Assembly (NCBI GenBank): GCA_020632135.1
Contig: JACKGC010000001.1
Location: 180,241 to 244,240 of the forward strand
DNA length: 64,000 nt
Direction of reading: 5' to 3'
From: Candidatus Nomurabacteria bacterium
GTDB lineage: Bacteria; Patescibacteriota; Minisyncoccia; Phycocordibacterales; UBA918
Below the pieces are notes generated by a model, which searched no databases, was not told the origin of the DNA, and saw only the letters and a list, made by a program, of their open reading frames with translations. Within the stretch, counting starts at the first letter, position 1. The number at the start of each line of letters is the position of its first letter. The position numbers were made by a program, and so were the translations under genes. Below are positions 38,895-55,806 of this stretch, piece after piece.

Positions 38895-39221
38895 TTATTT
38901 CTTTACGCCCAGCTCGACTGAGATGTGGCTGTTACGCTTATTAATTCGTGAGGCAGAACCTCGAGCTCGCGGCATGGAGCGCTTGAAGGTAGGAGCCTTA
39001 TTGACCTGTACAGCCTTGATAAAGAGCTCCTCTTCCTTTGCCCCCTGCTGCTTGGCATTTGCGACTGCAGAAGAAATAACCTTTGCAAATGGCTGTGCGG
39101 CACGCTTGTCAACAAAGTTGAGCGTCGCGAGAGCATCAGCTGCTTTCTTGCCACGCACGAGGTCAGCGATAAGGCGAACCTTGCGCGGTGACTGACGATA
39201 GTTTTTGAGAATTGCTTTCAT
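38895..39221 (-). CDS. rplV: 50S ribosomal protein L22
   Basis: YRQSPRKVRLIADLVRGKKA is uL22. Confidence 0.95.
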   Translation of the reverse strand: MKAILKNYRQSPRKVRLIADLVRGKKAADALATLNFVDKRAAQPFAKVISSAVANAKQQGAKEEELFIKAVQVNKAPTFKRSMPRARGSASRINKRNSHISVELGVKK

Positions 39222-39235
39222 AGATATCGTACAGA

Positions 39236-39562
39236 TTATGCAGCCTTAGCAGCCTTAGCAGCTGCAATTTCTGCCTCTTTCTTCTTCTGATCAAGTTCCT
39301 TCTGCATCTTACCTCCGTGGCGCCAGAACTTCTTGGTTGGTGAGAATTCACCGAACTTGTGGCCCACCATTTCTTCTGCGACCAGTACTTCAATATGATC
39401 GCGGCCGTTGTGTACACCAAAGGTGAACCCTACCATTTCTGGAGAGATCACTGAGCCTCGAGCCCAGGTCTTGATGACACCACCCTCTCCGGGTTTCTTT
39501 CCGACAATCTTTTTGAGGAGACGTTCGTCTACGTACGGTCCCTTGTATAGTGATCGTGACAT
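39236..39562 (-). CDS. rpsS: 30S ribosomal protein S19 with Lys/Ala-rich C-terminal tail
   Basis: [12 protein letters not shown]...[10 protein letters not shown]...[10 protein letters not shown] is uS19. The tail reads [16 protein letters not shown]. Confidence 0.95.
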
Positions 39563-40111
39563 TTAAGTGAAACAAGGAGAGCAACGACTATGTTGAACTT
39601 ACGTCCCAATTTCGGTCTTTCTTCTTACAGAAGCTGTTCAGGTTGTCGTTGCTTACGCAACAGACAACCTCTTGCGAAGTGGCATCAAGCCACTTCTCAC
39701 CCGCCCGAAATTGCTGGACGCCGTCGCAGAGTCGCTACTCTCTCTATTTAATTGTTAGTAAATACCGCTTGTAGTTAGCAGTTTTGCGCAGGCTAAAGCC
39801 TTGGGTGCAAAACCACCGTCAGTGGCGGCTTGTGATATTCCCGAGCAGTCCGGTAACGGCCTGACTACTCTTGTGGTCACCTACTTCGTTCTTATTTCAT
39901 GCGCTTCCTGCCAGGGAAACGACTTGAGGTTGGAACCCGCATAGAGTACCAAAAAGTACTGGAAAGTCAATGAATACATTTTTAGGGTGACAACTAAATA
40001 CGTGCCCAACGCACCACATATTTTATGTGACTATTGTAATTACGTTACGACAGAGGTAGATTTGTAGCAGCTAAATAGCTCTTCCGTTCATCACAAAGAG
40101 GTACTGTCCCA

Positions 40112-41545
40112 ATGGGCATTAAAGCTCGTAAAGATAAAAAACTGTTCGTCCTTGATACCAACGTGCTGATGCACGACCCGACCGCGCTGTTCCGCTTTGC
40201 GGAGCATGACGTCTTCCTCCCGATGGTCGTCCTTGAGGAACTGGACCGCGCAAAGAAAGGCACCTCTGAAGTCGCACGCAACTCACGCCAGGTTAGCCGC
40301 TTTCTCGACGAACTGATGCAAAAGAGAAACGGGAACTCTATGGACAATGGACTACCACTCTCTTCCTGCATCGAAGGTAACGGGCATTTGAGCAATGATG
40401 CTCCGGCCCTCGACTGCGGTCATCTGTTCTTTCAGACCCAGCTGCAACCAAAAAACCTCCCTGTCCAACTAACCGGGAATGGGAACTCGCCCGACAACAA
40501 TATCCTTGGCACTGCACTGGCACTCGCTGAGATGGCGCCTGACCGTAAAATTACGTTGGTCTCCAAAGACATCAACTTGCGTATCAAGGCCGCTGTCGTC
40601 GGCATCCACACGGAGGACTACCACAACGACCAGGTACTGGACGACGTCAACTTGCTCTACAGCGGCCAGTCGGCGCTGCCAACGGATTTCTGGGAGACAC
40701 ACAGCAAGGAGATCGACTCATGGCAAGAGGGCGGCCACACCTTCTACAAAGCATCCGGCCCAGATACCGCCGAGTGGTATGTCGGCCAGTGTTTGTACAT
40801 GGCAGGCGATCAGCCGTTCGAGGCGATCGTGCGACGCAAGGAAGGCGATGGTGCGATCATCGAGTTGGTCAACAACTACCGTTCTGAAAAGCATGCGGTG
40901 TGGGGCATCAACGCTCGTAACCGCGAGCAAAACTTCGCTCTCAACCTGCTGATGGACCCCGAGATCGACTTCGTTTCATTGCTCGGCACCGCCGGTACCG
41001 GCAAGACGCTCCTTGCTCTTGCCGCTGGCTTGGCTCAGGTACTGGATAAAAATATCTACCGCGAGATCATCATGACGCGCGTCACGGTGCCCGTCGGCGA
41101 AGATATAGGCTTCCTGCCGGGCACTGAAGAGGAAAAGATGACACCTTGGATGGGCGCACTCATGGACAATCTCGAAGTGCTCACGAAGACCGAGGGAGGA
41201 GACTGGGGCCGTGCCGCCACCGACGATCTGCTGCGTTCACGCATCAAGATCCATTCACTCAACTTTATGCGTGGTCGCACCTTCCTTAAGAAGTACCTCA
41301 TCCTTGACGAGGCACAAAACCTCACCCCGAAGCAGATGAAGACACTCGTCACTCGTGCCGGCCCCGGCACCAAGATCGTCTGCCTCGGCAACGTCGCACA
41401 GATTGACACGCCGTACCTGACCGAAACCACCTCTGGTCTCACCTACGTGGTCGACCGGTTCAAGGACTGGCCGCATGGAGGCCACATCACGCTGCTGCGT
41501 GGGGAACGTTCACGGCTGGCGGACTTTGCGTCTGATCAGTTGTGA
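40112..41545 (+). CDS. PIN-domain + PhoH-like ATPase (YlaK family), GC3-rich
   Basis: N-terminal PIN (FVLDTNVLMHDP...VVLEELD). Walker A LLGTAGTGKT, then ILDEAQNLTP and GNVAQID. Third codon positions are strongly G/C. Confidence 0.85.
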   Translation: MGIKARKDKKLFVLDTNVLMHDPTALFRFAEHDVFLPMVVLEELDRAKKGTSEVARNSRQVSRFLDELMQKRNGNSMDNGLPLSSCIEGNGHLSNDAPALDCGHLFFQTQLQPKNLPVQLTGNGNSPDNNILGTALALAEMAPDRKITLVSKDINLRIKAAVVGIHTEDYHNDQVLDDVNLLYSGQSALPTDFWETHSKEIDSWQEGGHTFYKASGPDTAEWYVGQCLYMAGDQPFEAIVRRKEGDGAIIELVNNYRSEKHAVWGINARNREQNFALNLLMDPEIDFVSLLGTAGTGKTLLALAAGLAQVLDKNIYREIIMTRVTVPVGEDIGFLPGTEEEKMTPWMGALMDNLEVLTKTEGGDWGRAATDDLLRSRIKIHSLNFMRGRTFLKKYLILDEAQNLTPKQMKTLVTRAGPGTKIVCLGNVAQIDTPYLTETTSGLTYVVDRFKDWPHGGHITLLRGERSRLADFASDQL

Positions 41546-41690
41546 GCAACACCAGTTCCTATTCATTGTGAAAATGCAACCCTCTCCACCTTACCTTGCA
41601 ATGAGGTGAGTTCGAAAGAGTATTTTGTCACATCATTGGCCGGAAGCGCTCGCGCTTCCGGCCTTTTCTTTTTGTGTTACCCTACCCCAT

Positions 41691-42008
41691 ATGCCCAGAA
41701 ACCGCGGACGCGAACATTCCACCCTCACCGAAACAGCCGATTTGGTCGTGCGTGAGCTAGAAAAAATACCTGGAATAAAAATGATCGCGCCAGGCGAGAT
41801 CCGCACCAATGCCCGCAGCGCGAGCGGGCGGTTTGTGACGTGTGTGTACACGACCGCTGGCTTTGAGCTCATCATCAGTGGTCAGAGCGCGCAGAAAGTC
41901 GCGGTACACACTACTTCTAATGCACGCGCCGTTTTCGCAGCGCTCAAAGCCAGCAAAAAATTACGCGAGTTTGTGTTTAAGGAACGGGAGCGCAAGCCGG
42001 GAGAATAA
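41691..42008 (+). CDS. hypothetical 105-aa protein
   Basis: Start taken at MPRNRGREH. Followed by the terminator at 42013-42051. No SD. Confidence 0.45.
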   Translation: MPRNRGREHSTLTETADLVVRELEKIPGIKMIAPGEIRTNARSASGRFVTCVYTTAGFELIISGQSAQKVAVHTTSNARAVFAALKASKKLREFVFKERERKPGE

Positions 42009-42012
42009 GAGG

Positions 42013-42051
42013 CAAGCGCTGGCCGGGCGCTTCGCGCCCGGCCAGCGCTTG
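42013..42051 (+). terminator. 18-bp-stem hairpin CAAGCGCTGGCCGGGCGC-TTC-GCGCCCGGCCAGCGCTTG
   Basis: Member of the CCGGGCGC family. A U-rich stretch follows. Confidence 0.7.
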
Positions 42052-42084
42052 TCGTTGTTACCGAAGAGAGTATCATAGATACAT

Positions 42085-42528
42085 ATGTGGAAACGGACAC
42101 AACCAAAGATCTTTATGGTAGAGGATGATCGCAATAATCACCCCCTGTTCCGCAAGGTCTTTGAAGCTGCCGGATTTGCGGTCACCATTCGCCGCACCGC
42201 GGACGGTGATTTTATTGAAGATGTAGTCAAGTCTGGACCAGACATCATCTCAATGGATATCATGATCGGGAAATCGGGGGCTGATGTAGAACGTGACGGC
42301 CTTGAAGCAGGAAGGCTGCTAAAGGCTGATGAACGCACAGCACAAATTCCGATCATGATCTTGACCAACTTCTTTGTGGACGAAAAGGTGCAACAAGCTA
42401 AAGCTTTCGGTGCGGTGGACTTCATTAGCCTGCAAGGTCACGCCATCGCTACAATTCCAGAGATCTTCAAGCGCTACCTTGATGCCCCGAGAAAATTCAT
42501 ACCCACCCATCCGCTATTGCAGCAATGA
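42085..42528 (+). CDS. stand-alone CheY-like response-regulator receiver
   Basis: IFMVEDD...DIISMDIMIG...IMILTN...AVDFISL fits the receiver fold with acidic pocket and acceptor Asp. No output domain. Confidence 0.75.
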   Translation: MWKRTQPKIFMVEDDRNNHPLFRKVFEAAGFAVTIRRTADGDFIEDVVKSGPDIISMDIMIGKSGADVERDGLEAGRLLKADERTAQIPIMILTNFFVDEKVQQAKAFGAVDFISLQGHAIATIPEIFKRYLDAPRKFIPTHPLLQQ

Positions 42529-42559
42529 AAAGGCCGGCCCCAAAGGGGCCGGCCTTTTC
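42527..42559. terminator. bidirectional terminator GAAAAGGCCGGCCCC-AAA-GGGGCCGGCCTTTTC
   Basis: Lies between convergent genes. Confidence 0.85.
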
Positions 42560-42568
42560 ATCTTCATC

Positions 42569-44083
42569 CTACAACTCCGCCATCGCCTCATCAATGAGAT
42601 CTTCGATCTCTTCGACGAGATCCAATACCTCATCCCAATCTTCGTCTTCAAAAGCATCTTCCGCGTCATTCAAGAGGTCATCTGCCTCATCCAAAATACC
42701 TTCCGCTTTCTTGGTACTCTTACCCGCGTCGTCGGCATCATACACTTCGTCCCAGGCCTCATCAAGCGCTTTGTCGATATCCTCAAGCGCTTCGTCTGCC
42801 TCGTCTTCATCTTCATCAGAAGAACCCCCGATCGCGTCGATCGCTTCGTCGATCAAGTCCTCTGCCTCTTCTGCCTGGTCGATCGCTTCCTCATAATCTT
42901 CTTCGTCGATAGCGATGTCAGCCCGCTTCAGGGCTCGCTCCGCGTCATCTAGCAGATCTTGGGCGTCCTCGACATCCTCGCCGTCCTCATCAGCTTCGTC
43001 GATCTCCTCCTCAGCTGCATCAAAGTCATCCCACACATCTTCAACGTACTTTTCTGCGTCTTTGTCTGAAATAAAGTCGATCTCATCGAGCGCGTCTTCA
43101 AGCAACTCTTCCGCATCGAGCGCGTCGCTCTTGGCTTGACGGTACACTCGCTCCTCAAATGCGTCCTTTGCATCATCAAGGAGATCTTCTGCCTCCCCGA
43201 TCAGCTCTTCGGCGTCACCAGTATCTTCGTCCTTGTCTTCAGCCTCATCAAAGAGATCCTGTACTTCCTCGAGCAGATCATCAACATCATCAATAATGTC
43301 TTCTGCTTCACTTGCCTCAGATTCACCGCCAGCGTCCTCGTACGCATCTGTCGCATCATCCAGAGCGGTCACTGCTGTTTCCTCAGCTTCAGCGAAGTCT
43401 CCATCGAAATAGCTCTCCAGAGCCTCAAACAGAGACTCAATGACATCACGAACATCTTCATCGATGTCCAACGCCTCATCTGGGTCATCGTCACGTAGGT
43501 CGTCAAGCTCATCATACGTGTTGAGAATAAGGTCCATTGCATCGCTAATGAGTTGCTCCGCGTCCGTTTGCGTCTTGCTCTTGGCCGAGGTTGAGATGCC
43601 CGCCACTTGCGGCGCTGGTGTCGTGACCGTAGCCGGAAGCGTTGGCTGTGGCGTGGCAGCATTGAGCTGTGACTGTAGATCATCAACTAAGCTGAGAAGT
43701 CGCTCAGCTTCAGTCTGTGCCACTGCAGAACCCGCTCCGACCACTTCCTGATACTTCGCCTGCGAAACTGAACCAAAGATACCGATGGCCGGAGAAACAT
43801 CATGATCTGCTTGCCACTTGGCTACGGCTTCACGAGTGAGTGAACCGTATTTGTCGGTCTCATTACCGGGTGACCCTGGCCCTTCGGCGGTGAGCTCGTA
43901 GCCATTAGCATTAAGGTACTCCTGCAGACAGCGCACGCTCTCGTCGATCACACCAACCTCAAGCGTTTGCGAAAACGTACAAGTGTTGGCCTGCGCATAA
44001 AATACAAATGGTGCGCTAAAAAGTAACGCAACGGCTAGACAAATAAATGAGACACGCGATCGAATGGAAACGGACAGGTTCAT
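42569..44083 (-). CDS. secreted peptidoglycan-binding-domain protein with roughly 320-aa hyper-acidic repeat region
   Basis: Signal peptide. PG_binding_1-like segment (VRCLQEYLNANGY...LTREAVAKWQADHDV). Then Asp/Glu-dominated repeats such as AEDLLDDAKDAFEE and AQDLLDDAERAL. Confidence 0.8.
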   Translation of the reverse strand: MNLSVSIRSRVSFICLAVALLFSAPFVFYAQANTCTFSQTLEVGVIDESVRCLQEYLNANGYELTAEGPGSPGNETDKYGSLTREAVAKWQADHDVSPAIGIFGSVSQAKYQEVVGAGSAVAQTEAERLLSLVDDLQSQLNAATPQPTLPATVTTPAPQVAGISTSAKSKTQTDAEQLISDAMDLILNTYDELDDLRDDDPDEALDIDEDVRDVIESLFEALESYFDGDFAEAEETAVTALDDATDAYEDAGGESEASEAEDIIDDVDDLLEEVQDLFDEAEDKDEDTGDAEELIGEAEDLLDDAKDAFEERVYRQAKSDALDAEELLEDALDEIDFISDKDAEKYVEDVWDDFDAAEEEIDEADEDGEDVEDAQDLLDDAERALKRADIAIDEEDYEEAIDQAEEAEDLIDEAIDAIGGSSDEDEDEADEALEDIDKALDEAWDEVYDADDAGKSTKKAEGILDEADDLLNDAEDAFEDEDWDEVLDLVEEIEDLIDEAMAEL

Positions 44084-44153
44084 ATCAATACTAAATATTA
44101 TGAGTAGTTGCTTTCATTGTATCAGATTTCTTCCCATTGCTACCGCACAGACA

Positions 44154-44342
44154 TCACTGCTCGCAGAGCAGCTGGTAGGGATGGGACTTACCAATATGGT
44201 GCTGAGCAACAGCAGTCGCAGCAACGGAACTCACGCACTGATAACGGCCAGCTTCGTGGGCCAGCACACCATTAGCAACCTTCATTACTCCGATCACGAG
44301 GACAAAACCAATAATCAAAAAAACATTGCGAGCTGATCTCAT
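44154..44342 (-). CDS. possible 62-aa small membrane protein
   Basis: MRSARNVFLIIGFVLVIGVMKV... has one TM helix. No SD. Weak call. Confidence 0.25.
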   Translation of the reverse strand: MRSARNVFLIIGFVLVIGVMKVANGVLAHEAGRYQCVSSVAATAVAQHHIGKSHPYQLLCEQ

Positions 44343-44488
44343 TGAGATAGAACATGACTTACGTGGGACCGCTTGTTTGTAAGAGTGGGAGTAATAGCCT
44401 ACCAAGCAGACACGAAAACTGTAATGGCAGTGACGTTGATAACCAGCTCGTCTGAGCACTTTCACCATGAAGCAGCGATACGTCAAAC

Positions 44489-44525
44489 AAGATCGGCCGG
44501 GCCCCGAAAGGGCCCGGCCGATCTT
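44489..44525. terminator. hairpin AAGATCGGCCGGGCCC-CGAAA-GGGCCCGGCCGATCTT after rplB
   Basis: 16-bp stem of the GGCCGGGCCC family. Confidence 0.65.
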
Positions 44526-44546
44526 ACTTTTACGACACCAACACCA

Positions 44547-45407
44547 CTACTTGCTACCTCGCATCAAGCGACCTGGCTTGCGACGAGAAACAATGAGTTT
44601 GTTGCTGTACTTCTTCGGTGAACGAGTCTTCTGCCCCTTTCCGGTTGGTCGACCCTGCTTGGTGCGCTGGCGTCGGTGTCCTCGTGGAGAACGTCCTTCA
44701 CCACCACCATGTGGGTGATCCACGGCGTTACGAGCGCTACCACGGTTCTTCGGACGAAGTCCCATGTGACGCGCGCGCCCCGCCTTACCAATACTCACGA
44801 GTCGATACTCCTCGTTCGACACCTCACCAACTGAAGCCCAGGCGGTGTTTTGCACCTTACGGATCTCAGTTGATGGCATCTTGAGCGTTGTATGCTTGCT
44901 GTCTTGGGCAACGACTTCAATCGCGTTACCAGCCGAACGACCAAGCTTTGCTCCTGCTCCTGGGTTGATCTCGACGTTATACACGAAAGTACCAACTGGA
45001 ATAGCAGCAAGTGGTAAACGGTTACCCGTCTTGATCTTCGCCTTCTCTGAAACGATGATCTCATCCCCCGCCTCAAGCTTCTGCGGCGCAAGGATGTAGC
45101 GACGCTCACCATCGGCGTAACACACGAGCGCAATGAAACCAGAGCGGTTTGGATCATACTCAATGGTCTCTACCTTAGCTGGTACATCCTTCTTTTCGAA
45201 CTTGAAGTCGATCTCGCGGAAGGTACGCTTGTTACCAGCGCCACGATAGTGGGTAGTAATACGACCCGCACTGTTGCGACCACCGGTACTCTTCTTACCC
45301 TTGGTAAGCTTCTTCAGCGGCTTGCTTGCCGTACTGGTGAGCTTCTTCTTGTACTCGATCACCGAGCCGTCACGACGACCCGCTGATGTTGGTTTATACT
45401 TTTTCAT
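44547..45407 (-). CDS. rplB: 50S ribosomal protein L2
   Basis: MKKYKPTSAGRR...GGRNSAGRITTHYRGAG...HPHGGGEG is uL2. Confidence 0.97.
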   Translation of the reverse strand: MKKYKPTSAGRRDGSVIEYKKKLTSTASKPLKKLTKGKKSTGGRNSAGRITTHYRGAGNKRTFREIDFKFEKKDVPAKVETIEYDPNRSGFIALVCYADGERRYILAPQKLEAGDEIIVSEKAKIKTGNRLPLAAIPVGTFVYNVEINPGAGAKLGRSAGNAIEVVAQDSKHTTLKMPSTEIRKVQNTAWASVGEVSNEEYRLVSIGKAGRARHMGLRPKNRGSARNAVDHPHGGGEGRSPRGHRRQRTKQGRPTGKGQKTRSPKKYSNKLIVSRRKPGRLMRGSK

Positions 45408-46534: not shown

Positions 46535-47152
46535 TTAGGCCCCGTAGACCTCTACTAATGTTCCCTTTCGACCTGGTACTGCACCTGATACTACGAGAGT
46601 ATTTTCAGCAGCATTTACTTGAAGGACCTTAAGTCCCTTTACAGTGACGGTGTCGCCACCCATGCGTCCGGCCATGCGAGTACCCTTAAGTACGCGATTG
46701 TTACCGGTCGCACCGATTGAACCTGGCTCACGCTCAGAATGCTTCTGACCGTGCGAGCGCCGTCCACCGGCAAAGCCATGGCGCTTCACCACACCCTGGA
46801 ATCCCTTACCTTTTGAAATAGCGGAGACCGTGATGTCATCACCTGGCTCAAACACAGACACGTCGATAGTGGCACCCTTTTCTACGTCGCCAATAGTCTC
46901 TCCCTTGAATTCACTTGGGCGAAACTCGCGCGCGGCAGCAGCGGTCCCAAAATGACCCTTCTGTGCTTTGCTGACACGATGCTCTTTCTGCTCACCAAAC
47001 GCGAGCTGCACCGCTGCGTAGCCGTCCTTTTCTGCGGTCTTCACCTGAGCGATAGTCGCTGGTGTGACCGTGAGCACGGTAGCTGCGCGACACACTCCTT
47101 CGGTATCGAAGACCTGTGTCATGCCAGTCTTAGTTCCTACGATAAATTTCAT
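46535..47152 (-). CDS. rplC: 50S ribosomal protein L3
   Basis: GTKTGMTQVF...KGKGFQGVVKRHGF...SHGQKHSEREPGSIG is uL3. Confidence 0.97.
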   Translation of the reverse strand: MKFIVGTKTGMTQVFDTEGVCRAATVLTVTPATIAQVKTAEKDGYAAVQLAFGEQKEHRVSKAQKGHFGTAAAAREFRPSEFKGETIGDVEKGATIDVSVFEPGDDITVSAISKGKGFQGVVKRHGFAGGRRSHGQKHSEREPGSIGATGNNRVLKGTRMAGRMGGDTVTVKGLKVLQVNAAENTLVVSGAVPGRKGTLVEVYGA

Positions 47153-47210
47153 TATTTATGTATGAATCTTGTAAATCGCTTTTATCATCAAATGATGTAG
47201 ACCCATACAA

Positions 47211-47267
47211 CAAATCGCGCGGATTTTCCGCGAGCACAGCTCGTCGTCAGAAAATCCGCGCGATTTG
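47211..47267. repeat. perfect 18-bp-arm hairpin just upstream of rplC
   Basis: CAAATCGCGCGGATTTTC-(21 nt with inner CGAGC/GCTCG stem)-GAAAATCCGCGCGATTTG. Confidence 0.85.
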
Positions 47268-47508
47268 TGCCCATTGGTCCGGGGCGCTCGCTTCGCTCGC
47301 GCCACGTACGTAGGTCTTTAAAAGCTGGGGGTAGTATACGCATACTGATGAAAAATGCAACTAGTACAGCTCTCCGACGTCAGATCTCCTTTGCGGAGAA
47401 GAAATTGGATCTGACGAAGATCCAAGATGAATTCGAAATAGTCGGCTTCGCTTATTTACATAAAAAAGCCGAGCGAAGCTCGACTTTTATTAACTGATAA
47501 CGTTTGAT

Positions 47509-47631
47509 CTATCCGATCACGGGAGCGATATGGAAGTACGCAAGTACTGCAATCGTCGCCAGACTGAGGCACTGGACCATCCAGCTATCTTCAGACTGAA
47601 ACGTCATCTCCTTCTTTTCTAAGTTTTCCAT
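47509..47631 (-). CDS. possible 40-codon ORF with C-terminal TM helix
   Basis: MENLEKKEMTFQSEDSWMVQCLSLATIAVLAYFHIAPVIG. Too short for the ORF track and has no good SD. Lies directly 3' of the structured domain on the minus strand. Confidence 0.25.
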   Translation of the reverse strand: MENLEKKEMTFQSEDSWMVQCLSLATIAVLAYFHIAPVIG

Positions 47632-47667
47632 ATAATTTGGAGTTAAAACTTATCCTCTAAAGAACTG

Positions 47668-47971
47668 TAGAAGTTGTCTAAGCTCTCACCATAGATACTA
47701 CGTTGTACATAATGACTCTGGTGTTTACTTTGTTTAATCTCACCGAGTATAGAATTTACGATGAGAATTTAGACAACTTCTATCGGAAGCCATCTGAGTT
47801 CTCAACACAAGCATGTTGTTACTAACTCTTGTTTCGGGTCGTCGTGACCAATGATCTGGCTGCAAAACTGCGCTTCGTTATCGCTGAACGAAAGTTCAAC
47901 TCAAACTTCAGCTTGTTTTTCGCTCAGATCATTGGTCACTTCGGACCTCGATGAGAACTCAGATGACTTCC
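47668..47971 (-). other. two adjacent nested-hairpin domains (candidate structured RNA or MITE-like element)
   Basis: Helix 47668-47681 / 47769-47782 is 14 bp and perfect. Helix 47785-47804 / 47952-47971 is 20 bp with one mismatch, which becomes a G-U pair only on the minus strand. Nested helix 47844-47858 / 47925-47939 is 15 bp and perfect. Flanked by the 10-bp direct repeat CTAAAGAACT (47657-47666 and 47971-47980). Confidence 0.45.
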
Positions 47972-48021
47972 TAAAGAACTATTTCTAATGCCTGCTGTAT
48001 TCCCGAGGGAGTGGAGCGGGC

Positions 48022-48088
48022 ACAGGAGGCGAATCGCGTCGACGATAACGACGAGAAAGGCGAATCGCTTGCGCGATTCGCCTCCTGT
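48022..48088 (-). promoter_or_regulatory. three-copy GGCGAATCGC element able to form mutually exclusive hairpins
   Basis: Copy A 48022-38, copy B 48059-68, inverted copy C 48072-88. B/C forms a 10-bp stem with a GCAA loop plus UUUCUCGUCGUU on the minus strand. A/C forms a 17-bp stem. Confidence 0.4.
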
Positions 48089-48155
48089 TGATTACAGTAT
48101 GAACCTTCGCGAAAAGAGTGCAAGTAGCATCTGTGGATAACTTGAGTGGTGTCAA

Positions 48156-48183
48156 TTTGAAATCATTTTAGCGGTGGTATACT
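48156..48183 (+). promoter_or_regulatory. promoter TTTGAA-N16-(TGg)TATACT for the 48-codon gene
   Basis: Extended -10 and a plausible -35. Confidence 0.5.
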
Positions 48184-48221
48184 GCTCGCGGAAATCAATT
48201 GCCAACACTGGAGGACAAAAA

Positions 48222-48368
48222 ATGATGATCAAGCAAGTCATTATCATCTACAGCCTGTTTGGATTTGAAATGTGTTACAACCCCTGCCCTTGGCAACAGA
48301 TTGGTATTTGTAAGACCCACCACAGATCGAGGTATGGACCACACTTTACTCGATCAGTGAGGAGGTAA
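48222..48368 (+). CDS. 48-aa hydrophobic/basic Cys-containing peptide (type I toxin-like)
   Basis: GGAGG lies 7 nt before the ATG. MMIKQVIIIYSLFGFEMCYNPCPWQQIGICKTHHRSRYGPHFTRSVRR. Own promoter and terminator. Confidence 0.5.
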   Translation: MMIKQVIIIYSLFGFEMCYNPCPWQQIGICKTHHRSRYGPHFTRSVRR

Positions 48369-48376
48369 CAATCAAG

Positions 48377-48405
48377 AAAGCCGGCCCCAAAGGGGTCGGC
48401 TTTTC
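48377..48405 (+). terminator. terminator GAAAGCCGGCCCC-AAA-GGGGTCGGCTTTTC
   Basis: The stem contains a G-U pair only when read on the plus strand. T-run follows. Confidence 0.7.
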
Positions 48406-48497
48406 CTAGGCTACTATCGATATTCAGACGTCATGGGTTTGCGTAGCACTGTTTTAAACATACAACCACGACTTCCATCAGAGACCAGGTGGTCAGC

Positions 48498-48534
48498 CTC
48501 CAAAAAACGCCCTATGAATGGGCGTTTTTTGGAG
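48498..48534. terminator. bidirectional terminator CTCCAAAAAACGCCC-(7 nt)-GGGCGTTTTTTGGAG after rpsJ
   Basis: 15-bp perfect stem that includes A6/T6. Confidence 0.8.
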
Positions 48535-48570
48535 AACTCAAAATATGGTCGTTACACTCCCTATTTTGAG

Positions 48571-48909
48571 CTACATCATCTTCACATCAATGTTCACACC
48601 TGACGGCAGTGAGAGGTTCGTGAGAGCTTCCACTACCTTTGGACCCGGATTGAGGATGTCGATCACACGCTTGTGCGTTCGCATCTCGAATTGTTCTCGC
48701 GCGTCCTTGTGTACGAACGTTGAGCGGTTAACCGTGTACTTCTTGATCTCCGTTGGCAATGGGATCGGACCAACCACCTTGGCGTCGAAACGCATGGCAG
48801 TGTCGATGATCTGCTTGACCGAAGTATCGAGGATCTTGTGTTCGTAGGCACGCACTCGAATACGGAGTTTGTTGATCGCACCGGCAGTTTTTTCGGTTGT
48901 TTCAGCCAT
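48571..48909 (-). CDS. rpsJ: 30S ribosomal protein S10
   Basis: LRIRVRAYEHKILD...GPIPLPTEIKKYTVNRSTFVHKDAREQFEMRTHKR is uS10. Confidence 0.97.
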   Translation of the reverse strand: MAETTEKTAGAINKLRIRVRAYEHKILDTSVKQIIDTAMRFDAKVVGPIPLPTEIKKYTVNRSTFVHKDAREQFEMRTHKRVIDILNPGPKVVEALTNLSLPSGVNIDVKMM

Positions 48910-49083
48910 GGTAATACGTTAGATGTTTCTACTCACACTACCTTACTCTCAATTGCAAGCGATTGCTTGAAATTGCTCGAGATACGAGGAAGGGCAAGGC
49001 TTGGGAGGAAGCCGTACTTGGCGGTACGGTGACCGACCAAGCCGACGCCCTGACAAAGTAGATTGAGTAATTTCATCAATCGC

Positions 49084-50271
49084 TTAGGCGATGATTTTGG
49101 TTACTACGCCTGCACCTACTGTCTTACCACCCTCACGGATAGCAAAGTTCTGTTGCTCCTCAAGCGCTACTGGAGTTACCAGCTTCACTTTGAAGGTTGC
49201 AGTGTCTCCTGGCATAACCATCTCAGTACCTTCTGCGAGGGTTACATCACCAGTTACGTCAGTAGTACGTACGTAGAACTGTGGCTTGTAACCTGAGAAG
49301 AATGGTGTGTGACGACCACCCTCATCCTTTGAAAGGACGTATACTTCAGCCTCGAACTCAGCGTGCGGGGTTACAGAACCCTTCGCTGCGAGCACCTGAC
49401 CACGGTGTACATCTTCCTTTTTGGTACCGCGCAGGAGGATACCAGCATTGTCGCCTGCCTGAGCAGCATCAAGCTGCTTATTGAACATTTCAACTCCGGT
49501 CACTGTTGTGACTGAAGTATCCTTGATGCCAACGATCTCTACTTCTTCACCGACCTTTACCTTACCGCGCTCTACACGACCAGTTACTACTGTGCCGCGT
49601 CCTTCAATTGAGAAAATGTCCTCAATTGGCATCAGGAATGGCTTGTCGAGTTCACGTTCAGGGGTTGGGAAGTACTCATCCATCTTATCCATCAGTTCAA
49701 CGATCTTTGCCTGGTAGTCTGCGTCGCCTTCGAGCGCCTTAAGTGCAGAACCATGAATGATCGGTGCATTTTCACCATCGTATCCAGCCTTGGTAAGATC
49801 TTCGCGAAGCTCTTCCTCCACGAGCATGAGCATTTCTTCATCATCTACCATGTCACACTTGTTAAGGAACACAAGCATCTTTGGTACACCTACCTGCTTT
49901 GCAAGAAGGATGTGCTCCTTTGTTTGTGGCATAGCACCATCAGTAGCTGCCACTACGAGGATAGCACCGTCCATCTGTGCCGCACCGGTGATCATGTTCT
50001 TGATGTAGTCAGCGTGACCTGGCGCATCAATGTGGGCGTAGTGACGATTTGGAGTCTCGTACTCAGAGTGAGAAAGAGAAATAGTAATACCACGAGCCTT
50101 TTCTTCTGGGGCTTTGTCAATTTCGCTAACATCCTTTACGTTAGCTGCATACCCATCACCTTTTGCATTGAGGGTAGTAAGAATAGCAGCAGTCAAGGTG
50201 GTTTTACCGTGGTCGACGTGACCAATGGTACCGACGTTGATGTGCGGCTTTGAACGATCAAAATCTGCCAT
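49084..50271 (-). CDS. tuf: elongation factor Tu
   Basis: [21 protein letters not shown] and NKCD motifs. 395 aa. Confidence 0.98.
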
Positions 50272-50332
50272 ATTAGTAGATTAGATTAGTTTTAATTAAA
50301 TAAGGTTCACCGCACACACTTGCGTACGTTAG

Positions 50333-50490
50333 AAAAAGCCTGTGCCACTTTCGTGGCGACAGGCTCTTTCGCGCGCTTGATTCTCCGTGTGCAAGCGAAA
50401 CGGCGCGAGAACGCCGCGCTTCACTTGTACGCGAATGCGTGTGAAAGAGCACTGTATATCCCCCCTTCCACAGACGAATCTGTGAGCGGT
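50333..50490 (-). ncRNA. structured RNA of about 155 nt (leader/attenuator or sRNA) between fusA and tuf
   Basis: On the minus strand: CACAGA-UUCG-UCUGUG, an 8-bp GCUCUUUC/GAAAGAGC helix, and inner helices. Ends in GCCUGUcGCCAC-GAAA-GUGGCACAGGC followed by U5, 62 nt before the tuf ATG. Confidence 0.45.
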
Positions 50491-50496
50491 GCGAGA

Positions 50497-50524
50497 ATAG
50501 TACCAAAGACGGGATATTTTGCAA
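50497..50524 (-). promoter_or_regulatory. promoter TTGCAA-N16-TACTAT (minus strand)
   Basis: Good -35 and -10 immediately after the fusA terminator. Confidence 0.5.
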
Positions 50525-50565
50525 GGAAAACGGCCGGCCCCGAAGGGGCCGGCCGTTTTCCTTGC
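50521..50565 (-). terminator. fusA terminator GCAAGGAAAACGGCCGGCCCC-GAA-GGGGCCGGCCGTTTTCCTTGC
   Basis: 21-bp stem. Confidence 0.85.
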
Positions 50566-50583
50566 TGTGTAAGATCTTACAGA

Positions 50584-52761
50584 TTACTCAGCCACGCCAC
50601 GCGCTTTCTTGATCTCCATCGCTACGTTTGGTGGTACCACCTCGTAGTGATCGAATTCCATAGTCATGGATGCGCGACCCTGGGTCATTGAGCGGAGGGT
50701 GTTGGTGTACCCAAACATCTCAGCCAATGGGATCTTTGCGTTTACGATGGTCTTACCGCCCAGTTCTGAGGTACCTTCAAGCTGTCCGCGCTTTGAAGAA
50801 ATGTTTCCTTGAATATCACCCATGTATTCTTCTGGCGTACGGACCTCAACCTTCATGATCGGTTCCAGGATCACCGCACCAGCCTTGGCTGCTGCTTCCT
50901 TAAACGCATTGATACCAGCGAGTTTGAAGGCGATCTCAGACGAGTCGACATCGTGGTAACTACCATCGAACAGCTCAACGGACACATCCTCCATCTTGTA
51001 CCCAGCAACGAAACCGCGTCCCATTGCTTCCTTCGCTCCCTTCATCACGGCTGGGATGTACTCACCAGGCACAACACCACCCTTGATGTTATTAATGAAT
51101 TCAAAGTGCTCATCACGAGTGATATTCTTAGCCACCTTTACTGGCTCGCCCGTTTCCGGGTCGATCGCAAGTGGCGGAAGCGGCTTAATGCGGATCTTCA
51201 CGTGACCGTACTGACCACGTCCACCAGACTGCTTGATGTACTTGTATTCAGCTTCGGCTTCACGCTGGATCGTTTCGCGGTACGCCACCTGTGGAGCGCC
51301 GATGTTGGCCTCCACGCCGAACTCACGCTTCATACGATCAACGATAATATCGAGGTGAAGCTCACCCATACCAGCGATGATCGTCTCGAGTGTTTCTTCG
51401 TCAGTTGACACCTTAAAGGTTGGATCTTCGTCAGCGAGACGCTTCAGTGCCACACCCATCTTCTCCTGGTCGTTCTTGGTCTTTGGTTCGACACGTACTG
51501 CCACCACTGGCTCTGGGAAAGTAATGGTCTCAAGCTCGATCTGTGCATTTTCGTCACAGAGTGTGTCTGAAGTCTTTACTTCCTTAAGACCTACTACTGC
51601 AGCAATTTCTCCTGCGTACACTTCTTCAATTTCTGCTCGCTTGTCAGCTTGGAGTCGTACAATACGACCGACACGTTCTTTGTTGCCTTGTGAGGAGTTG
51701 TAGATGTAGGTACCAGCCTTCACCTTTCCTGAGTACACCCGGAAGAAAGCCAGCTGCCCCACGAACTTGTCGTCCTGTAGCTTGAATACGAGCGCTGAAA
51801 ATGGCTCATCGTCAGATGGCTTTCGGGTGAGCACAGTCTCTTCATCTTTCGGGTCAACACCTTCCACTGGTGGCAAGTCGAGCGGTGATGGGAGGTAATC
51901 TACCACCGCGTCGAGCACGAGCTGCACGCCGATATTCTTAAGGGCTGTACCAGTCATCACTGGGAAGATCTCGTTGGCGATCACTGCCTTGCGCAGGGTC
52001 TTTTTGAGATCATCGACTGATGGTTCTTCACCACCAAGATATGCTTCCATGAGCACATCGTCATGAGCCACCACCTGTTCGATCAGCTCAGCGCGCCACT
52101 TTTGCGCTTCCTCAAGCATGTCAGCTGGGATCTCCTCTTCGGTCACGGTCATGCCCATTTCACCACCAAAGCGGTATGCCTTCATGGTGATGAGGTCAAC
52201 GACACCACTCATAGTATCTTCAGCACCGATCGGGAGCTGGATACGCACTGCCTTGGTTGAAAGGCGGTCATGAATTGACTTCACTGATGCGTCAAAGTCA
52301 GCACCGAGCTTGTCCATCTTATTTATGAAACAAATACGTGGCACATTGGCCTCGTCAGCATACCCCCAGTTGGTTTCGGTCTGTGGTTCAACACCTGCTG
52401 AACCGTCGAATACCACAACCGCACCGTCGAGCACACGCATTGACCGCTTTACCTCAGCGGTAAAGTCGATGTGACCTGGCGTGTCGATGATGTTAAAGGT
52501 GTGTTTCAGCTCCTTGGTGGTTCGGTCAGCCTCCATTGTCTTGGTCCAGTTACAAGAGATCGCTGCAGCGGTAATAGTGATACCGCGTTCGCGCTCTTGC
52601 TCCATCCAGTCAGTGACTGTTGCGCCATCGTGCACCTCACCGATCTTGTGAGACATACCGGTGTAAAAGAGGATACGTTCAGACGTGGTGGTCTTACCGG
52701 CGTCTACGTGCGCTACGATACCGAAGTTTCGTAGTTTCTCGAGTGGAAATTCTCGTGCCAT
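50584..52761 (-). CDS. fusA: elongation factor G
   Basis: [20 protein letters not shown] and NKMD motifs. 725 aa. Confidence 0.98.
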
Positions 52762-53007
52762 AAATAATTATGTATAAATGAAAGTTAATAATTGTTTACC
52801 TCCCTAGTGCGCGTGGGGCGCGAAAAGCTTTGCTTTTCGCGCCCGTCAACTCCCGCAATAGAAAATTGACCCGAAGGCCAGACGCGCACACTATACTCCA
52901 TCTGCCCTAAAACAGCAATGTCTTTGAAAGAAACCCGAGTCGTGTTCGTATGTAAAGTAGACTTAACAATTTGCTATACTATATTATGACCGTGACGTCA
53001 CCAACCC

Positions 53008-53220
53008 ATGAAACAAAGTCCACTGCAAAACAATATACACTCATTTCGCACCACCGCGGGCCTCACGCAAGCCAGCTTAGCAGAGGCGGTCGGCGTGACC
53101 CGGCAAACCATCATCTCGATAGAGAAAGGCAACTATGAGCCTTCGGTGCGTCTGGCACTGCGCCTCTCTAACACACTAGGAGTCACTGTCGAGGAACTAT
53201 TTTATGAAACAATAAACTAA
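53008..53220 (+). CDS. small XRE/YozG-type HTH transcriptional regulator
   Basis: GLTQASLAEAVGVTRQTIISIEKGNYEPS. 70 aa. Confidence 0.8.
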   Translation: MKQSPLQNNIHSFRTTAGLTQASLAEAVGVTRQTIISIEKGNYEPSVRLALRLSNTLGVTVEELFYETIN

Positions 53221-54146: not shown

Positions 54147-55265
54147 CTAGTCGATCTCGAGATCAAGCTCTGACTCAAGCTCAGCAGAGGTAAGTCCCGT
54201 ACGCAATGCCACTTCTGCAATCAGCGCTGCTTTAGTGGTGTACACCGTGTTGTACTCCAGCTTCTTACTTCCGTACTCAACGCGCACCTCCGCTTTTAGC
54301 CCTTCAACCCGTACTTCAAACTTTTTGATACTACCATTCCACTCAGTATCGTCGTCAGAATCATCTTCGTCATGGTCTCGGCCTCGGTGGTCGTCGTCAT
54401 CGTCTTCCCACTCTTCTTCGTCTTCAAACTCCCATTCATCTTCGTCCTCATACTCCTCTTCCCACTTGTCTTCGTAGTCGTCATCATGGTCACCGAAGTT
54501 TGTAGATACCGACTCTTCTGCCTGCACGCCGGCCTTTGACCCCTGAGCGTCTTGCTCTCTAACTTGTACACGTACGTCACCGTCATCATCAATTCGTAAC
54601 CTGAAGCCGTCGTCACGCACCTCGATCCGATCATCTTTGATCTCTACTCGAGTATTGTCTTCAGTTTGTACATTTGTGGTCGTTTCACTTCGGCCAGCGA
54701 TCTTTACTTTATCGATGTCTGCCTGCAGTTCAGTCAGGATCTGGACCCGGATATCACGGTCATCGAAATCTTCTAGTGAGTCCAATACGGCAGTGACGGC
54801 CTTGGCGATGCGCTCCTCGCCGCTTTCGCGCACAGTAACTGAAGCTGAAGTTGATGCACTTGAAGATGCGGCCACTTCAGCTTCGGTCGACTCCGTTTCT
54901 TCACTAATGATCTCACGCAGCTCAGCCAGGCGTTCAGCGGAGAACTGCGCGCGAAGCTCCGCTTCGCGCGCCTCGCCGGCAAAGGCAAGTTGTACGCGTT
55001 CAGCCGCTCGCTCGATCGGGAACAAGAGGTCTCCTGGCTTAGCGTCGTTTGACGCTGCAACGGTGCCAGTGGTGCCAACTATTACTACTAAGGCTACAAG
55101 TACTCCGGTCATGGTTTTAGTTCGTGAATGAATGAAGGCAGCGTATGGTGACGGAGTTGGTGCGGCCACCTTGGCTTCGATCACCCGCAACACCGCAGCC
55201 TTCTCTTCCGCAGAGAGTGTCGGTCGTTCTTTTTCTATTCGGTTGTCTAGATCATCATTCGACAT
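54147..55265 (-). CDS. putative membrane-anchored anti-sigma factor with poly-acidic Trp-punctuated tract
   Basis: Starts 7 nt after the ECF sigma gene. One TM helix (TGVLVALVVIVGTTGTVAA). Tract DHDDDYEDKWEEEYEDEDEWEFEDEEEWEDDDDD. Confidence 0.6.
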   Translation of the reverse strand: MSNDDLDNRIEKERPTLSAEEKAAVLRVIEAKVAAPTPSPYAAFIHSRTKTMTGVLVALVVIVGTTGTVAASNDAKPGDLLFPIERAAERVQLAFAGEAREAELRAQFSAERLAELREIISEETESTEAEVAASSSASTSASVTVRESGEERIAKAVTAVLDSLEDFDDRDIRVQILTELQADIDKVKIAGRSETTTNVQTEDNTRVEIKDDRIEVRDDGFRLRIDDDGDVRVQVREQDAQGSKAGVQAEESVSTNFGDHDDDYEDKWEEEYEDEDEWEFEDEEEWEDDDDDHRGRDHDEDDSDDDTEWNGSIKKFEVRVEGLKAEVRVEYGSKKLEYNTVYTTKAALIAEVALRTGLTSAELESELDLEID

Positions 55266-55272
55266 GGCGATG

Positions 55273-55806
55273 TTATGCGTTAAGGATCGAAGCCAGTGCC
55301 GCGCGAGCGCGATGATGGCGCACCCGTACCGCAGACTCCTTCATATTAATAATGGTTCCTATTTCAGCAAACGTGAACCTCGACCAGTGGTGCAGTACCA
55401 CGATCTCGCGCGAAACGTCGTCGAGTGTTTCGAGTGCCTGAGTGACTGAACAGTTCTGTTCTACAGCTGACTCTGCGCTACCATGCCACTCTTCCTGCAA
55501 CTCGGCCGTTTCGTGCTTCTTGGTCTTGGCGTAGTATGCAGCTAACTGGCGGCGTACGATCGTAAAGAGAAACGAGTAGAACGCTGCGTCAGACTGATAG
55601 GTAAACCGGGGCAGGGACTTGTAGAGCTCTATGAACACATCCTGGGTAACCTCTCTCGCGTCCTCATGAGAATTGGTGCGAAACGCAACAAACGAAAAGA
55701 CGCGATCGACAGTGTGTTCATAGAGCGCAGCAAATCCCTGACTGGTATCAGCCACTGCGTGATTCACTAATGCTTTTATTTCGATTGACTCCATGGTGTC
55801 ATTCAC
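55273..55806 (-). CDS. ECF-type RNA polymerase sigma-70 factor
   Basis: Region 2 (AREVTQDVFIELYKSL) and region 4 (FAEIGTIINMKESAVRVRHHRA). Confidence 0.85.
   Translation of the reverse strand: MNDTMESIEIKALVNHAVADTSQGFAALYEHTVDRVFSFVAFRTNSHEDAREVTQDVFIELYKSLPRFTYQSDAAFYSFLFTIVRRQLAAYYAKTKKHETAELQEEWHGSAESAVEQNCSVTQALETLDDVSREIVVLHHWSRFTFAEIGTIINMKESAVRVRHHRARAALASILNA

Follow-up and report, generated by a model that had tools for sequence, protein, structure and literature searches.

How does a bacterium with a tiny genome and few regulators set the supply of its translation machinery? To our knowledge, almost nothing is known about this control in the candidate phyla radiation (CPR, or Patescibacteria), and a locus in a 64,000-nucleotide stretch of contig JACKGC010000001.1, called the window throughout, raises the question directly. 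As a rule, EF-Tu is more abundant than any other protein in a bacterial cell, and S10 has two roles, one in the ribosome and one as the transcription factor NusE. In the window, their genes, tuf and rpsJ, follow a folded RNA that has its own promoter and an intrinsic terminator ahead of the tuf start codon. A preliminary description of this DNA, made from the letters alone, had taken the element either for an attenuator or riboswitch-like leader of tuf or for an independent small RNA (sRNA). The analysis reported here points to a leader, most plausibly a cis-acting, boxA-responsive attenuator of the EF-Tu/S10(NusE) operon with a leader–trailer pairing like that of rRNA (rrn) operons. The part played by Nus factors is one that we infer, and we consider this whole reading about equally likely to prove right or wrong.

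A conserved leader of tuf and rpsJ

The element lies on the minus strand, as do all of the features collected in Table 1. Its promoter motif, TTGCAA/TGGTACTAT, sits just 3' of the fusA terminator, and the -10 hexamer is preceded by TGG (TGG-TACTAT, 50505-50497), which makes it an extended -10 (TGn). A consensus scanner missed and did not list this promoter because only 8 of the 12 consensus positions match, which is below its threshold; the -35/-10 pair, CTTGCAAAA ... TGnTAnnAT, is nevertheless kept in all homologues of the leader. A terminated RNA running from the likely start near 50490 to the U-tract would be about 158 nucleotides (nt) long. The region from 50333 to 50500 has a minimum free energy (MFE) of -77.7 kcal/mol, compared with -52.8 +/- 3.6 kcal/mol for shuffled sequences (z = -6.95), and none of 200 shuffles folded as well. 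Within it, a first hairpin (P1) is followed by a purine-rich run, GGAAGGGGGG, by a boxA-like element, by a long hairpin (P3), and then by the terminator, the core of which has an energy of -19.1 kcal/mol. The 5' block CGCACCGC can pair with GUGCGG(UG) at 50308-50319 in an outer helix predicted by RNAalifold, in an ambiguous register. From the U-tract it is 61 nt to the tuf ATG, and the last part of the leader, up to that ATG, is AU-rich and lacks a Shine–Dalgarno sequence.

Every feature that the preliminary description had read from the letters was borne out: the promoter TTGCAA-N16-TACTAT after the fusA terminator, the UUCG hairpin with its CACAGA/UCUGUG stem, the terminator with its GAAA loop and U5, and a structured RNA of about 155 nt. 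The 8-bp helix GCUCUUUC/GAAAGAGC, which it had described as overlapping the terminator by about 2 nt, is also there; it belongs to an alternative fold at -71.2 kcal/mol and not to the MFE structure. The terminator was correctly placed, with a distance to the tuf ATG given as 62 nt, one too many. A repeat or mobile element was considered as well and ruled out, because the terminator sequence occurs only once in the 64-kb window.

Downstream, no terminator was found in the interval between tuf and rpsJ, rpsJ follows tuf in every locus examined, and in the window, as in most relatives, rpsJ has an intrinsic terminator on its 3' side. We therefore take the transcription unit to be promoter–leader–tuf–rpsJ. 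The gene order on the minus strand is fusA, leader, tuf, rpsJ, a 1.4-kb gap poor in open reading frames (ORFs), and rplC-rplD-...; a variable region thus separates rplC from rpsJ, and in one related locus (L089) rplC is not downstream at all.

Relatives were collected as contigs encoding an EF-Tu 88 to 96% identical to that of the window, and their loci carry L numbers. Homologues of the leader were found directly upstream of tuf in 13 related lineages, the homologous loci being L081/82, L083, L084, L085, L086-88, L089/90, L091, L099, L100, L101, and L102, plus L001. A blastn search with the fusA–tuf spacer against 80 species-representative genomes gave no similarity. In an eight-sequence alignment (A1), the -10 region and the blocks CACCG, GCUCUUU, GUUCUCG, and GxGCGG are invariant, and the sequence between them has diverged. 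fusA is absent or lies kilobases away in L001, L085, L086-88, L091, and L102, and the promoter and leader still abut tuf there. Because homologues are present with or without a neighboring fusA, the leader belongs to tuf–rpsJ and not to the fusA–tuf spacer. The location between fusA and tuf given in the preliminary description thus holds for the window and fails as a defining trait, since the element travels with tuf–rpsJ.

The hairpins are conserved as structures. At the P1 position, a hairpin is kept with at least five unrelated stem sequences, among them CGUUAGUCUA...UAGAUUUACG in L089, ACGGCC/GGCCGU in L102, and ACAGGU/ACCUGU in L100. A hairpin with a YUCUCG apex, corresponding to P3, was found upstream of tuf in 23 lineages, including genomes labeled Campbellbacteria and Yonathbacteria, with wholly different stems. 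This result comes from single-sequence folds, used in place of MAFFT and RNAalifold since P3 stems shift register between lineages; a specificity screen for P3 by regular expression plus folding was too permissive to discriminate. Structural conservation in relatives, which the preliminary description had proposed beforehand as a check, was thus found in 13 lineages, with compensatory changes. The covariance-model scan that it had also proposed matched no known family: Rfam 15 at gathering thresholds gave no matches in the whole window or in the loci of four relatives, and a scan of 50200-50700 by E value returned only the fusA terminator hairpin, a spurious generic match. The literature searched likewise yielded no description of a CPR tuf leader.

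In more distant Paceibacteria (L003-L020, L023, L047), the tuf leader, 100 to 200 nt upstream of the gene, opens immediately 3' of a sigma-70-type promoter with a short hairpin, in many cases CGCA...UGCG. Next comes a U-rich tract, for example GUUCUUUUUGUUUUG or CGCUCUUUGGCUUG; this start of the leader resembles a boxB–boxA arrangement or a promoter-proximal terminator. Of the 17 nearest genomes, 8 have the motif GYTCTTT upstream of tuf, whose background frequency is 0.08 per 300 nt.

A boxA-like element in the leader

In rRNA leaders, boxA is the binding site of NusB–S10, S10 being NusE. The leader element UGCUCUUUCACA agrees at 11 of 12 positions with the E. coli rrn boxA, which we take to be UGCUCUUUAACA. 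Its segment GCUCUUUCACA matches, at 10 of 11 positions and with C for A at position 8, the gammaproteobacterial boxA consensus GYTCTTTAANA of Baniulyte et al. 2017 (PMC5725501). That work also predicted a boxA ahead of rpsJ in three genera, Colwellia, Saccharophagus, and Teredinibacter, and ahead of fusA in Thiocystis (PMC5725501). No other intergenic site in the 64 kb carries the exact match. A metagenome scan found the exact 11-mer in seven rrn leaders, 81 to 141 nt upstream of the 16S 5' end and so in boxA position; two of them show the classical boxA...UGUGUGGGCGCUCG boxC context, and others read UGCUCUUUCACAAUUUA, almost the E. coli sequence. The GCUCUUUCACA spelling is therefore a natural boxA variant.

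Conservation singles the element out further. The core GCUCUUU is invariant in the 13 leader lineages. The longer form GCUCUUUCACA(C) is invariant in L083, L085, L091, L100, and L102, all of which lack the pairing partner described below (anti-boxA), and L001 keeps the core. Invariance in lineages without that partner indicates that the boxA sequence itself is also recognized, a protein being the simplest candidate for this. We regard the match as meaningful because it is the sole intergenic one and invariant, because the same 11-mer occurs in rrn leaders, and because the operon itself encodes NusE.

Metagenome contig Ga0116174_10005625 (L093) carries an rrn leader with boxA GCUCUUUCACAAUUG beside bacterial rpmE, rpsB, and a short tsf (194 amino acids), the product of which NCBI labels 'Candidatus Pacearchaeota archaeon'. 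The contig is probably from a mis-binned CPR bacterium and, its taxonomy being uncertain, may hold a CPR rrn leader with GCUCUUUCACA.

Mutually exclusive pairing of boxA and the terminator

Some 80 nt past boxA, the segment GAAAGAGC(CUGU) complements boxA and at the same time forms the 5' flank of the terminator. In the window, this boxA:anti-boxA pairing extends to ACAGUGCUCUUUC x GAAAGAGCCUGU, 12 bp. GAAAGAGCCUGU can pair either back with boxA or forward with ACAGGC, and the boxA region ACAGUGCUCUUUC is nearly a copy of the 3' arm and tail of the terminator, ACAGGCUUUUUC. When the boxA:anti-boxA helix was forced, the fold came to -71.2 kcal/mol, versus -77.7 kcal/mol for the terminator fold, and it freed the terminator 3' arm ACAGGC and the U-tract. 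As in attenuators that work through an intrinsic terminator, a GC-rich hairpin with a U-tract lies between promoter and gene and faces a mutually exclusive antiterminator. The predicted three-segment layout is the classic attenuator arrangement.

A boxA:anti-boxA duplex of -12 to -16 kcal/mol is found in seven lineages: the window, L089, L086, L081/82, and L084, plus L099/L101. The last two form a second leader subfamily, with an extra U in boxA and an extra A in its partner (GCUCUUUUC x GAAAAGAGC). The central G of GAAAGAGC makes a Watson–Crick pair with the boxA C, whereas its pair with the terminator tail is no more than a wobble, which suggests selection for the pairing with boxA. Terminator homologues with compensatory changes are present in L089 (GCUAC/GUAGU for GCCAC/GUGGC), L081/82, L084, and L086, where the stem reaches 18 bp, and a terminator-like form occurs in L099 and L101. 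L083, L085, L091, L100, L102, and L001 have neither the terminator nor GAAAGAGC; what they keep is the U-rich GCUUUUU, which forms the 5' arm of a small hairpin rich in AU. Judged by this distribution, the terminator looks like a lineage-specific module placed ahead of a pre-existing U-rich segment. Since only about half of the lineages have it, read-through control would be a lineage-specific layer on an older leader.

Complementarity between the P3 loop and rpsJ

The apical motif of P3, GUUCUCGCGC, is complementary to the rpsJ codons GCG CGA GAA C. These encode Ala-Arg-Glu and lie about 1.6 to 1.7 kb 3' of the loop and about 190 nt before the transcript's 3' end. Contiguous complementarity of 9 to 13 bp was found in 17 nearer lineages. 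In L011, loop and rpsJ site each carry two differences from the window, and the match lengthens to 13 bp (UUGCUCUCGUGCA/UGCACGAGAGCAA); in L006 a change from GAA to GAG in rpsJ is matched by U to C in the loop. With the partner in register, 75% of cells were paired, versus 30 to 63% with the partner slid, and four of the loop–rpsJ pairs show double changes. Cognate loop–rpsJ duplexes have energies of -20 to -27 kcal/mol and are more stable than swapped ones. As in the leader–trailer pairing of rrn operons, the complementarity spans more than 1 kb and covaries, with moderate statistics.

Codon use in rpsJ provides stronger evidence for the pairing than the covariation does. Among 16 distinct rpsJ sequences, the 34 columns with an invariant four- or sixfold-degenerate amino acid have a mean pairwise codon identity of 0.37. 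The two most conserved of these columns are the adjacent Ala GCG (15 of 16) and Arg CGA (16 of 16), at the center of the complementarity. CGA is used for none of the 13 Arg codons of tuf. Among the loci tabulated, those without UCUCG upstream of tuf have CGC, CGT, CGG, AGA, or AGG at the target Arg, with L040 (CGA) as the sole exception. The wide conservation of the P3 loop is explained by a partner that is fixed by the rpsJ protein code.

Proposed mechanism

What we observe directly are the sequence features, the ways in which they are conserved and covary, the competing folds, and the constraint on synonymous sites; the steps below add binding by NusB–S10, a sign of regulation, and a purpose for the long-range pairing, all three of which we infer. 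Transcription would start at the conserved promoter right after the fusA terminator, and the nascent leader would expose the boxA-like UGCUCUUUCACA. During transcription, the boxA:anti-boxA antiterminator would form first and let polymerase proceed into tuf. Alternatively, GAAAGAGCCUGU would join ACAGGC, and the resulting strong terminator and U5 would halt polymerase 61 nt short of the tuf start codon. Which of the two forms would presumably depend on whether NusB–S10 occupies boxA. In the version that we favor, free S10–NusB in excess of rRNA demand would bind boxA, anti-boxA would be released, the terminator would form, and less EF-Tu and S10 would be made. Such autogenous repression is favored because its sign is right for ribosomal-protein homeostasis and because TRAP, PyrR, and L4 attenuation work by the same logic. 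Regulation might also have the opposite sign: a polymerase modified by Nus factors and resistant to terminators, like that on rrn operons or at phage lambda nut sites, would coregulate EF-Tu and S10 with rRNA.

With either sign, a leader tethered through boxA would be kept near the RNA exit channel, which would favor the P3-loop:rpsJ helix once rpsJ emerges; formation of the 16S leader–trailer helix has been proposed to work in this way. The P3-loop:rpsJ helix might control S10 translation, create a processing site, release Nus factors ahead of the terminator that follows rpsJ, or shield the ends of the mRNA. A more ambitious proposal, tentative and in our estimate rather unlikely, is that this protein-coding operon is built like an rRNA operon, with boxA-bound NusB–S10 tethered to polymerase and with the P3–rpsJ leader–trailer helix feeding back on S10 synthesis or on Nus release ahead of the operon's terminator.

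Weighing the alternatives

Several observations weigh against a boxA-responsive attenuator with long-range pairing. The chance expectation of GYTCTTTNANA is about 1.4 per 64 kb, and the boxA assignment rests on resemblance and not on the rRNA boxA of this lineage itself. In the MFE structure boxA is paired with the upstream purine run; it is predicted to be paired in both alternative folds, which fits a competition and proves nothing. The terminator/anti-boxA module is absent in 6 of the 13 lineages, where boxA is invariant all the same, so its role would have to extend beyond control of the terminator. Nus complexes of the rrn type mainly counter Rho and not strong intrinsic terminators. A phmmer search with E. 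coli NusB against the ORFs of the window, which is about 6% of the genome, and of the relatives gave only L22. On the side of the long-range pairing, 10 of 500 shuffles attained the covariation score and no variation is seen in the core pairs, so that the support is moderate. An unbiased scan found one to three chance leader–operon complementarities of 9 to 10 nt per locus. We therefore dropped any claim of significance for the match at a single locus, and the case for the pairing rests on its recurrence, its covariation, and the codon constraint. In addition, the distant L015, L017, and L020 keep the UCUCG loop with CGU in rpsJ, that is, with a central mismatch.

Some of these points would suit a structural or processing leader that works without Nus factors, in which the hairpins and the contact between the loop and rpsJ stabilize or organize the mRNA by pairing its 5' and 3' ends, in the manner of the hok mRNA fold-back or of rRNA leader–trailer helices, and the terminator is a constitutive, leaky dampener. 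GCUCUUUCACA would then be conserved as one strand of conserved helices or as the site of another protein. Pairing of boxA in both folds agrees with such a leader, the matched insertions on the two sides of boxA:anti-boxA look like those of an ordinary helix, the loop–rpsJ complementarity together with a terminator after rpsJ suits an end-to-end contact, and NusB was not found among the ORFs of the window and relatives. A helix alone fails, however, to explain why GCUCUUUCACA(C) is invariant in lineages without anti-boxA, the sequence equals a natural rrn boxA variant, and the operon itself encodes NusE; we find this explanation doubtful. The promoter and strong terminator are equally what a trans-acting sRNA would have, possibly one derived from the 5' untranslated region (UTR). 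Its terminated product of about 158 nt would pair through GUUCUCGCGC with rpsJ mRNA or titrate NusB–S10, and read-through into tuf would be incidental. The loop does complement the rpsJ coding sequence, with covariation, and there is a precedent in MotR, which pairs within the rpsJ coding sequence in E. coli (PMC10578931). Half of the homologous leaders, however, have no terminator and continue straight into tuf, the element is always immediately upstream of tuf, and no other conserved tuf promoter lies 3' of the terminator, where the search found no conserved -35/-10 pair and GUGUGCGG as the sole conserved block. An independent sRNA is the less likely since the leader in relatives works without a terminator, and we judge it unlikely overall.

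A sensor of a nucleotide or alarmone, of EF-Tu, or of another ribosomal protein could also set termination, and a stable multihelix fold ahead of the terminator, with an alternative structure, is what a riboswitch would show. The P3 loop might then be a protein site, kept as it is in L015, L017, and L020 without perfect complementarity to rpsJ. We nonetheless consider a sensor quite improbable: the Rfam scans of the window and of four relatives' loci were negative, conserved nucleotides fall only in a few linear blocks between helices and junctions of varying length, and the loop motif is accounted for by its complement in the rpsJ protein code. Of the two halves of the earlier proposal for a leader, an attenuator has held up, through its recurrence in 13 lineages, its compensatory changes, and its mutually exclusive pair. 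The riboswitch has not, in view of the missing Rfam match and of a conserved core in which a boxA-like single strand and the loop of a hairpin stand where a ligand pocket would be expected. Attenuation by a leader peptide, in which ribosomes on an upstream ORF running from a GUG near 50453 to a UAA overlapping the tuf ATG would set the terminator, is barely credible. The purine-rich GGAAGGGGGG does precede that GUG, and the frame is open to UAAUAUG, yet there is no AUG anywhere in the leader, indels in relatives break the frame (for example, an extra C in the L089 boxA), the stops vary, and substitutions have no codon periodicity. The unconserved frame and the missing AUG effectively refute it. 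The boxA-responsive attenuator is the reading carried into the comparisons that follow.

Comparison with known systems

Likeness to rrn leaders extends beyond UGCUCUUUCACA, which is near the E. coli boxA and the same as the boxA of the seven metagenomic rrn leaders. A hairpin lies 5' of boxA and a GU-rich block, GUGUGUGCGG, lies 3' of it, and a leader segment complements a site about 1.6 kb downstream, as in the 16S leader–trailer helix. In contrast to rrn operons, tuf–rpsJ is an mRNA operon in which boxA is coupled to an intrinsic terminator through anti-boxA, the partner of the leader lies within a coding sequence, and the duplex has just 10 to 13 bp. Autoregulation of Nus-factor genes through boxA offers a second parallel, with a boxA-like 5' UTR on the NusE operon and an expected feedback by NusB/NusE. 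In E. coli suhB, boxA lies within 50 nt of the start codon, and its effect is to repress translation, upon which Rho terminates transcription (PMC5725501). Here, in contrast, it is about 170 nt upstream of tuf and about 1.5 kb upstream of rpsJ, it has an alternative pairing to an intrinsic terminator, and the phylum is CPR.

With L4 attenuation in the E. coli S10 leader and with TRAP and PyrR, the element shares a structured leader and terminator before the first gene of a translation operon, a ribosomal protein encoded by the operon as the proposed effector, and mutually exclusive antiterminator and terminator. It has no sequence or Rfam similarity to these systems, its proposed effector is S10 (with NusB) and not L4, and L4 is encoded in a separate downstream unit that has its own conserved leader. 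MotR, a trans-acting, Hfq-dependent sRNA, pairs at about +150 in the E. coli rpsJ coding sequence (Melamed et al. 2023, PMC10578931). Both cases involve RNA pairing within rpsJ that, together with the operon leader, sets S10 output; here, however, the site, at about +210, would pair with the leader of its own operon, and there is no implication of Hfq. Long-range pairings within mRNAs are known from the infC–rpmI–rplT pseudoknot recognized by L20 and from the 5'–3' fold-back of hok mRNA. The tuf–rpsJ leader shares with them a conserved complementarity between distant segments of one transcript, and it differs in span (about 1.5 to 1.7 kb versus about 0.3 kb) and in pairing a hairpin loop with a coding segment.

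The locus and its surroundings

TABLE 1 Features of the tuf–rpsJ unit and of the upstream fusA unit, in window positions
Feature	Position	Strand	Remarks
fusA	52761-50584	minus	EF-G, 725 amino acids (718-726 in relatives)
Intrinsic terminator of fusA, CGGCCGGCCCC-UUCG-GGGCCGGCCG + U4	50527-50559 (hairpin 50555-50531)	minus	Perfect hairpin
Promoter	50497-50524	minus	-35 TTGCAA at 50524-50519, 16-nt spacer, -10 TACTAT at 50502-50497
Whole 5' leader of tuf–rpsJ	50272-50490	minus	Predicted start near 50490; runs to tuf ATG
5' block CGCACCGC	50486-50493	minus	CACCG invariant in alignment A1
Hairpin P1, CACAGA-UUCG-UCUGUG	50469-50484	minus	
boxA-like element UGCUCUUUCACA	50440-50451	minus	Core GCUCUUU invariant in all homologues
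GCUCUUUC	50450-50443	minus	5' strand of 8-bp helix
Long hairpin P3	50392-50427	minus	Apical motif GUUCUCGCGC at 50412-50403
Anti-boxA GAAAGAGC	50363-50370	minus	Overlaps terminator 5' arm by GC
Intrinsic terminator GCCUGUcGCCAC-GAAA-GUGGCACAGGC	50364-50338; U5 50337-50333	minus	11-bp stem with one bulge
Block GUGUGUGCGGUG	50308-50319	minus	GxGCGG invariant; boxC-like, GU-rich; 3' strand of possible outer helix
tuf	49084-50271	minus	EF-Tu, 395 amino acids; ATG at 50271
rpsJ	48571-48909	minus	S10 = NusE, 112 amino acids; Pfam Ribosomal_S10 found in homologous loci
rpsJ codons GCG CGA GAA C	48693-48702	minus	Complement of P3 loop GUUCUCGCGC
Intrinsic terminator after rpsJ, AAAAAACGCCC-AUUCAUA-GGGCGUUUUUU	48502-48530	minus	End of tuf–rpsJ unit

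The closest tuf genes are those of Candidatus Kaiserbacteria and other Paceibacteria, with at most 89% identity among species-representative genomes and up to 96% among metagenome matches; judged from its sequence, the host is a Kaiserbacteria-like CPR bacterium. The fusA terminator, which is near-identical in L089, marks the end of the upstream unit. rpsL-rpsG was not located ahead of fusA, where the window instead has a divergent helix-turn-helix gene (53008-53220) and an extracytoplasmic function-type sigma factor with a DUF5667 protein (54147-55806). A tRNA and transfer-messenger RNA scan of the window found none, and the Rfam scan found no rRNA genes in it.

The tuf–rpsJ spacer (48910-49083, minus strand) has 174 nt in the window versus 19 to 60 nt in most relatives. 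It folds very stably (-72.8 kcal/mol, z = -6.7) without forming a terminator with a U-tract; only its last 24 nt are common, with L089, and it is a lineage-specific structured insert. In relatives, the rpsJ–rplC gap (47153-48570) holds a transposase (L087), a GIY-YIG endonuclease (L102), or unrelated genes (L089), and it looks like an insertion hot spot that parts rpsJ from the rest of the classical S10 operon. Within the gap, at 48058-48083, a GC-rich palindrome, AGGCGAATCGCTTGCGCGATTCGCCT (plus strand), lies in about 200 nt of surroundings that recur with it at 80 to 86% identity elsewhere in related genomes (L089, 8558-8757; L100, 6987-7108), a pattern that may reflect a small mobile or repeated element. 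The ribosomal-protein cluster is broken a second time between rplB (44547-45407) and rplV (38898-39245). The interruption, 39246-44546, carries genes for a PIN–PhoH ATPase (40112-41545, opposite strand) and for a 504-amino-acid protein with a peptidoglycan-binding domain (42569-44083).

A second conserved leader occupies 47171-47360 (minus strand), directly upstream of rplC (ATG at 47152). By blastn, the last 190 nt or so of the rpsJ–rplC gap are conserved in L086-88, L083, L082, L084, L085, L102, L001, and L091, always just 5' of rplC, and they contain the hairpin CGCGGAAAAUCCGCG followed by a U-rich tract (47232-47218). An Rfam scan of 47100-48600 by E value found nothing relevant. This leader is a candidate attenuator of the rplC-rplD-rplW-rplB operon, possibly of the L4 type. 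Upstream of fusA (52762-52900, minus strand) are a promoter-like TTGCTG-N17-TATAGT, with its -10 at 52895-52890, a small hairpin with a U-tract (UGGCC-UUCG-GGUCA AUUUUCU, 52880-52860), and a perfect 13-bp hairpin (52844-52816). Three translation operons of the window (fusA, tuf, and rplC) thus have hairpin and U-rich elements in their 5' leaders.

Implications

What is new here is the phylum (CPR), the operon (tuf–rpsJ), and the wiring of boxA to an intrinsic terminator via anti-boxA, together with a leader-to-coding-sequence pairing over 1.6 kb that leaves a footprint at synonymous sites. The frozen synonymous codons of rpsJ offer a clean case of selection at the RNA level on a ribosomal-protein gene, and the motif, which is not in Rfam, is a new RNA family for annotating CPR genomes. 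If boxA, a switchable terminator, and contact with the S10 coding sequence do act together, they would take boxA/Nus control beyond rRNA and suhB, into a core mRNA operon of a distant phylum, and would make the proposed autoregulation of NusE concrete. Should the operon prove to be built like an rRNA operon, that design would tie the output of EF-Tu and S10 directly to the rRNA transcription machinery in these ultra-small CPR bacteria.

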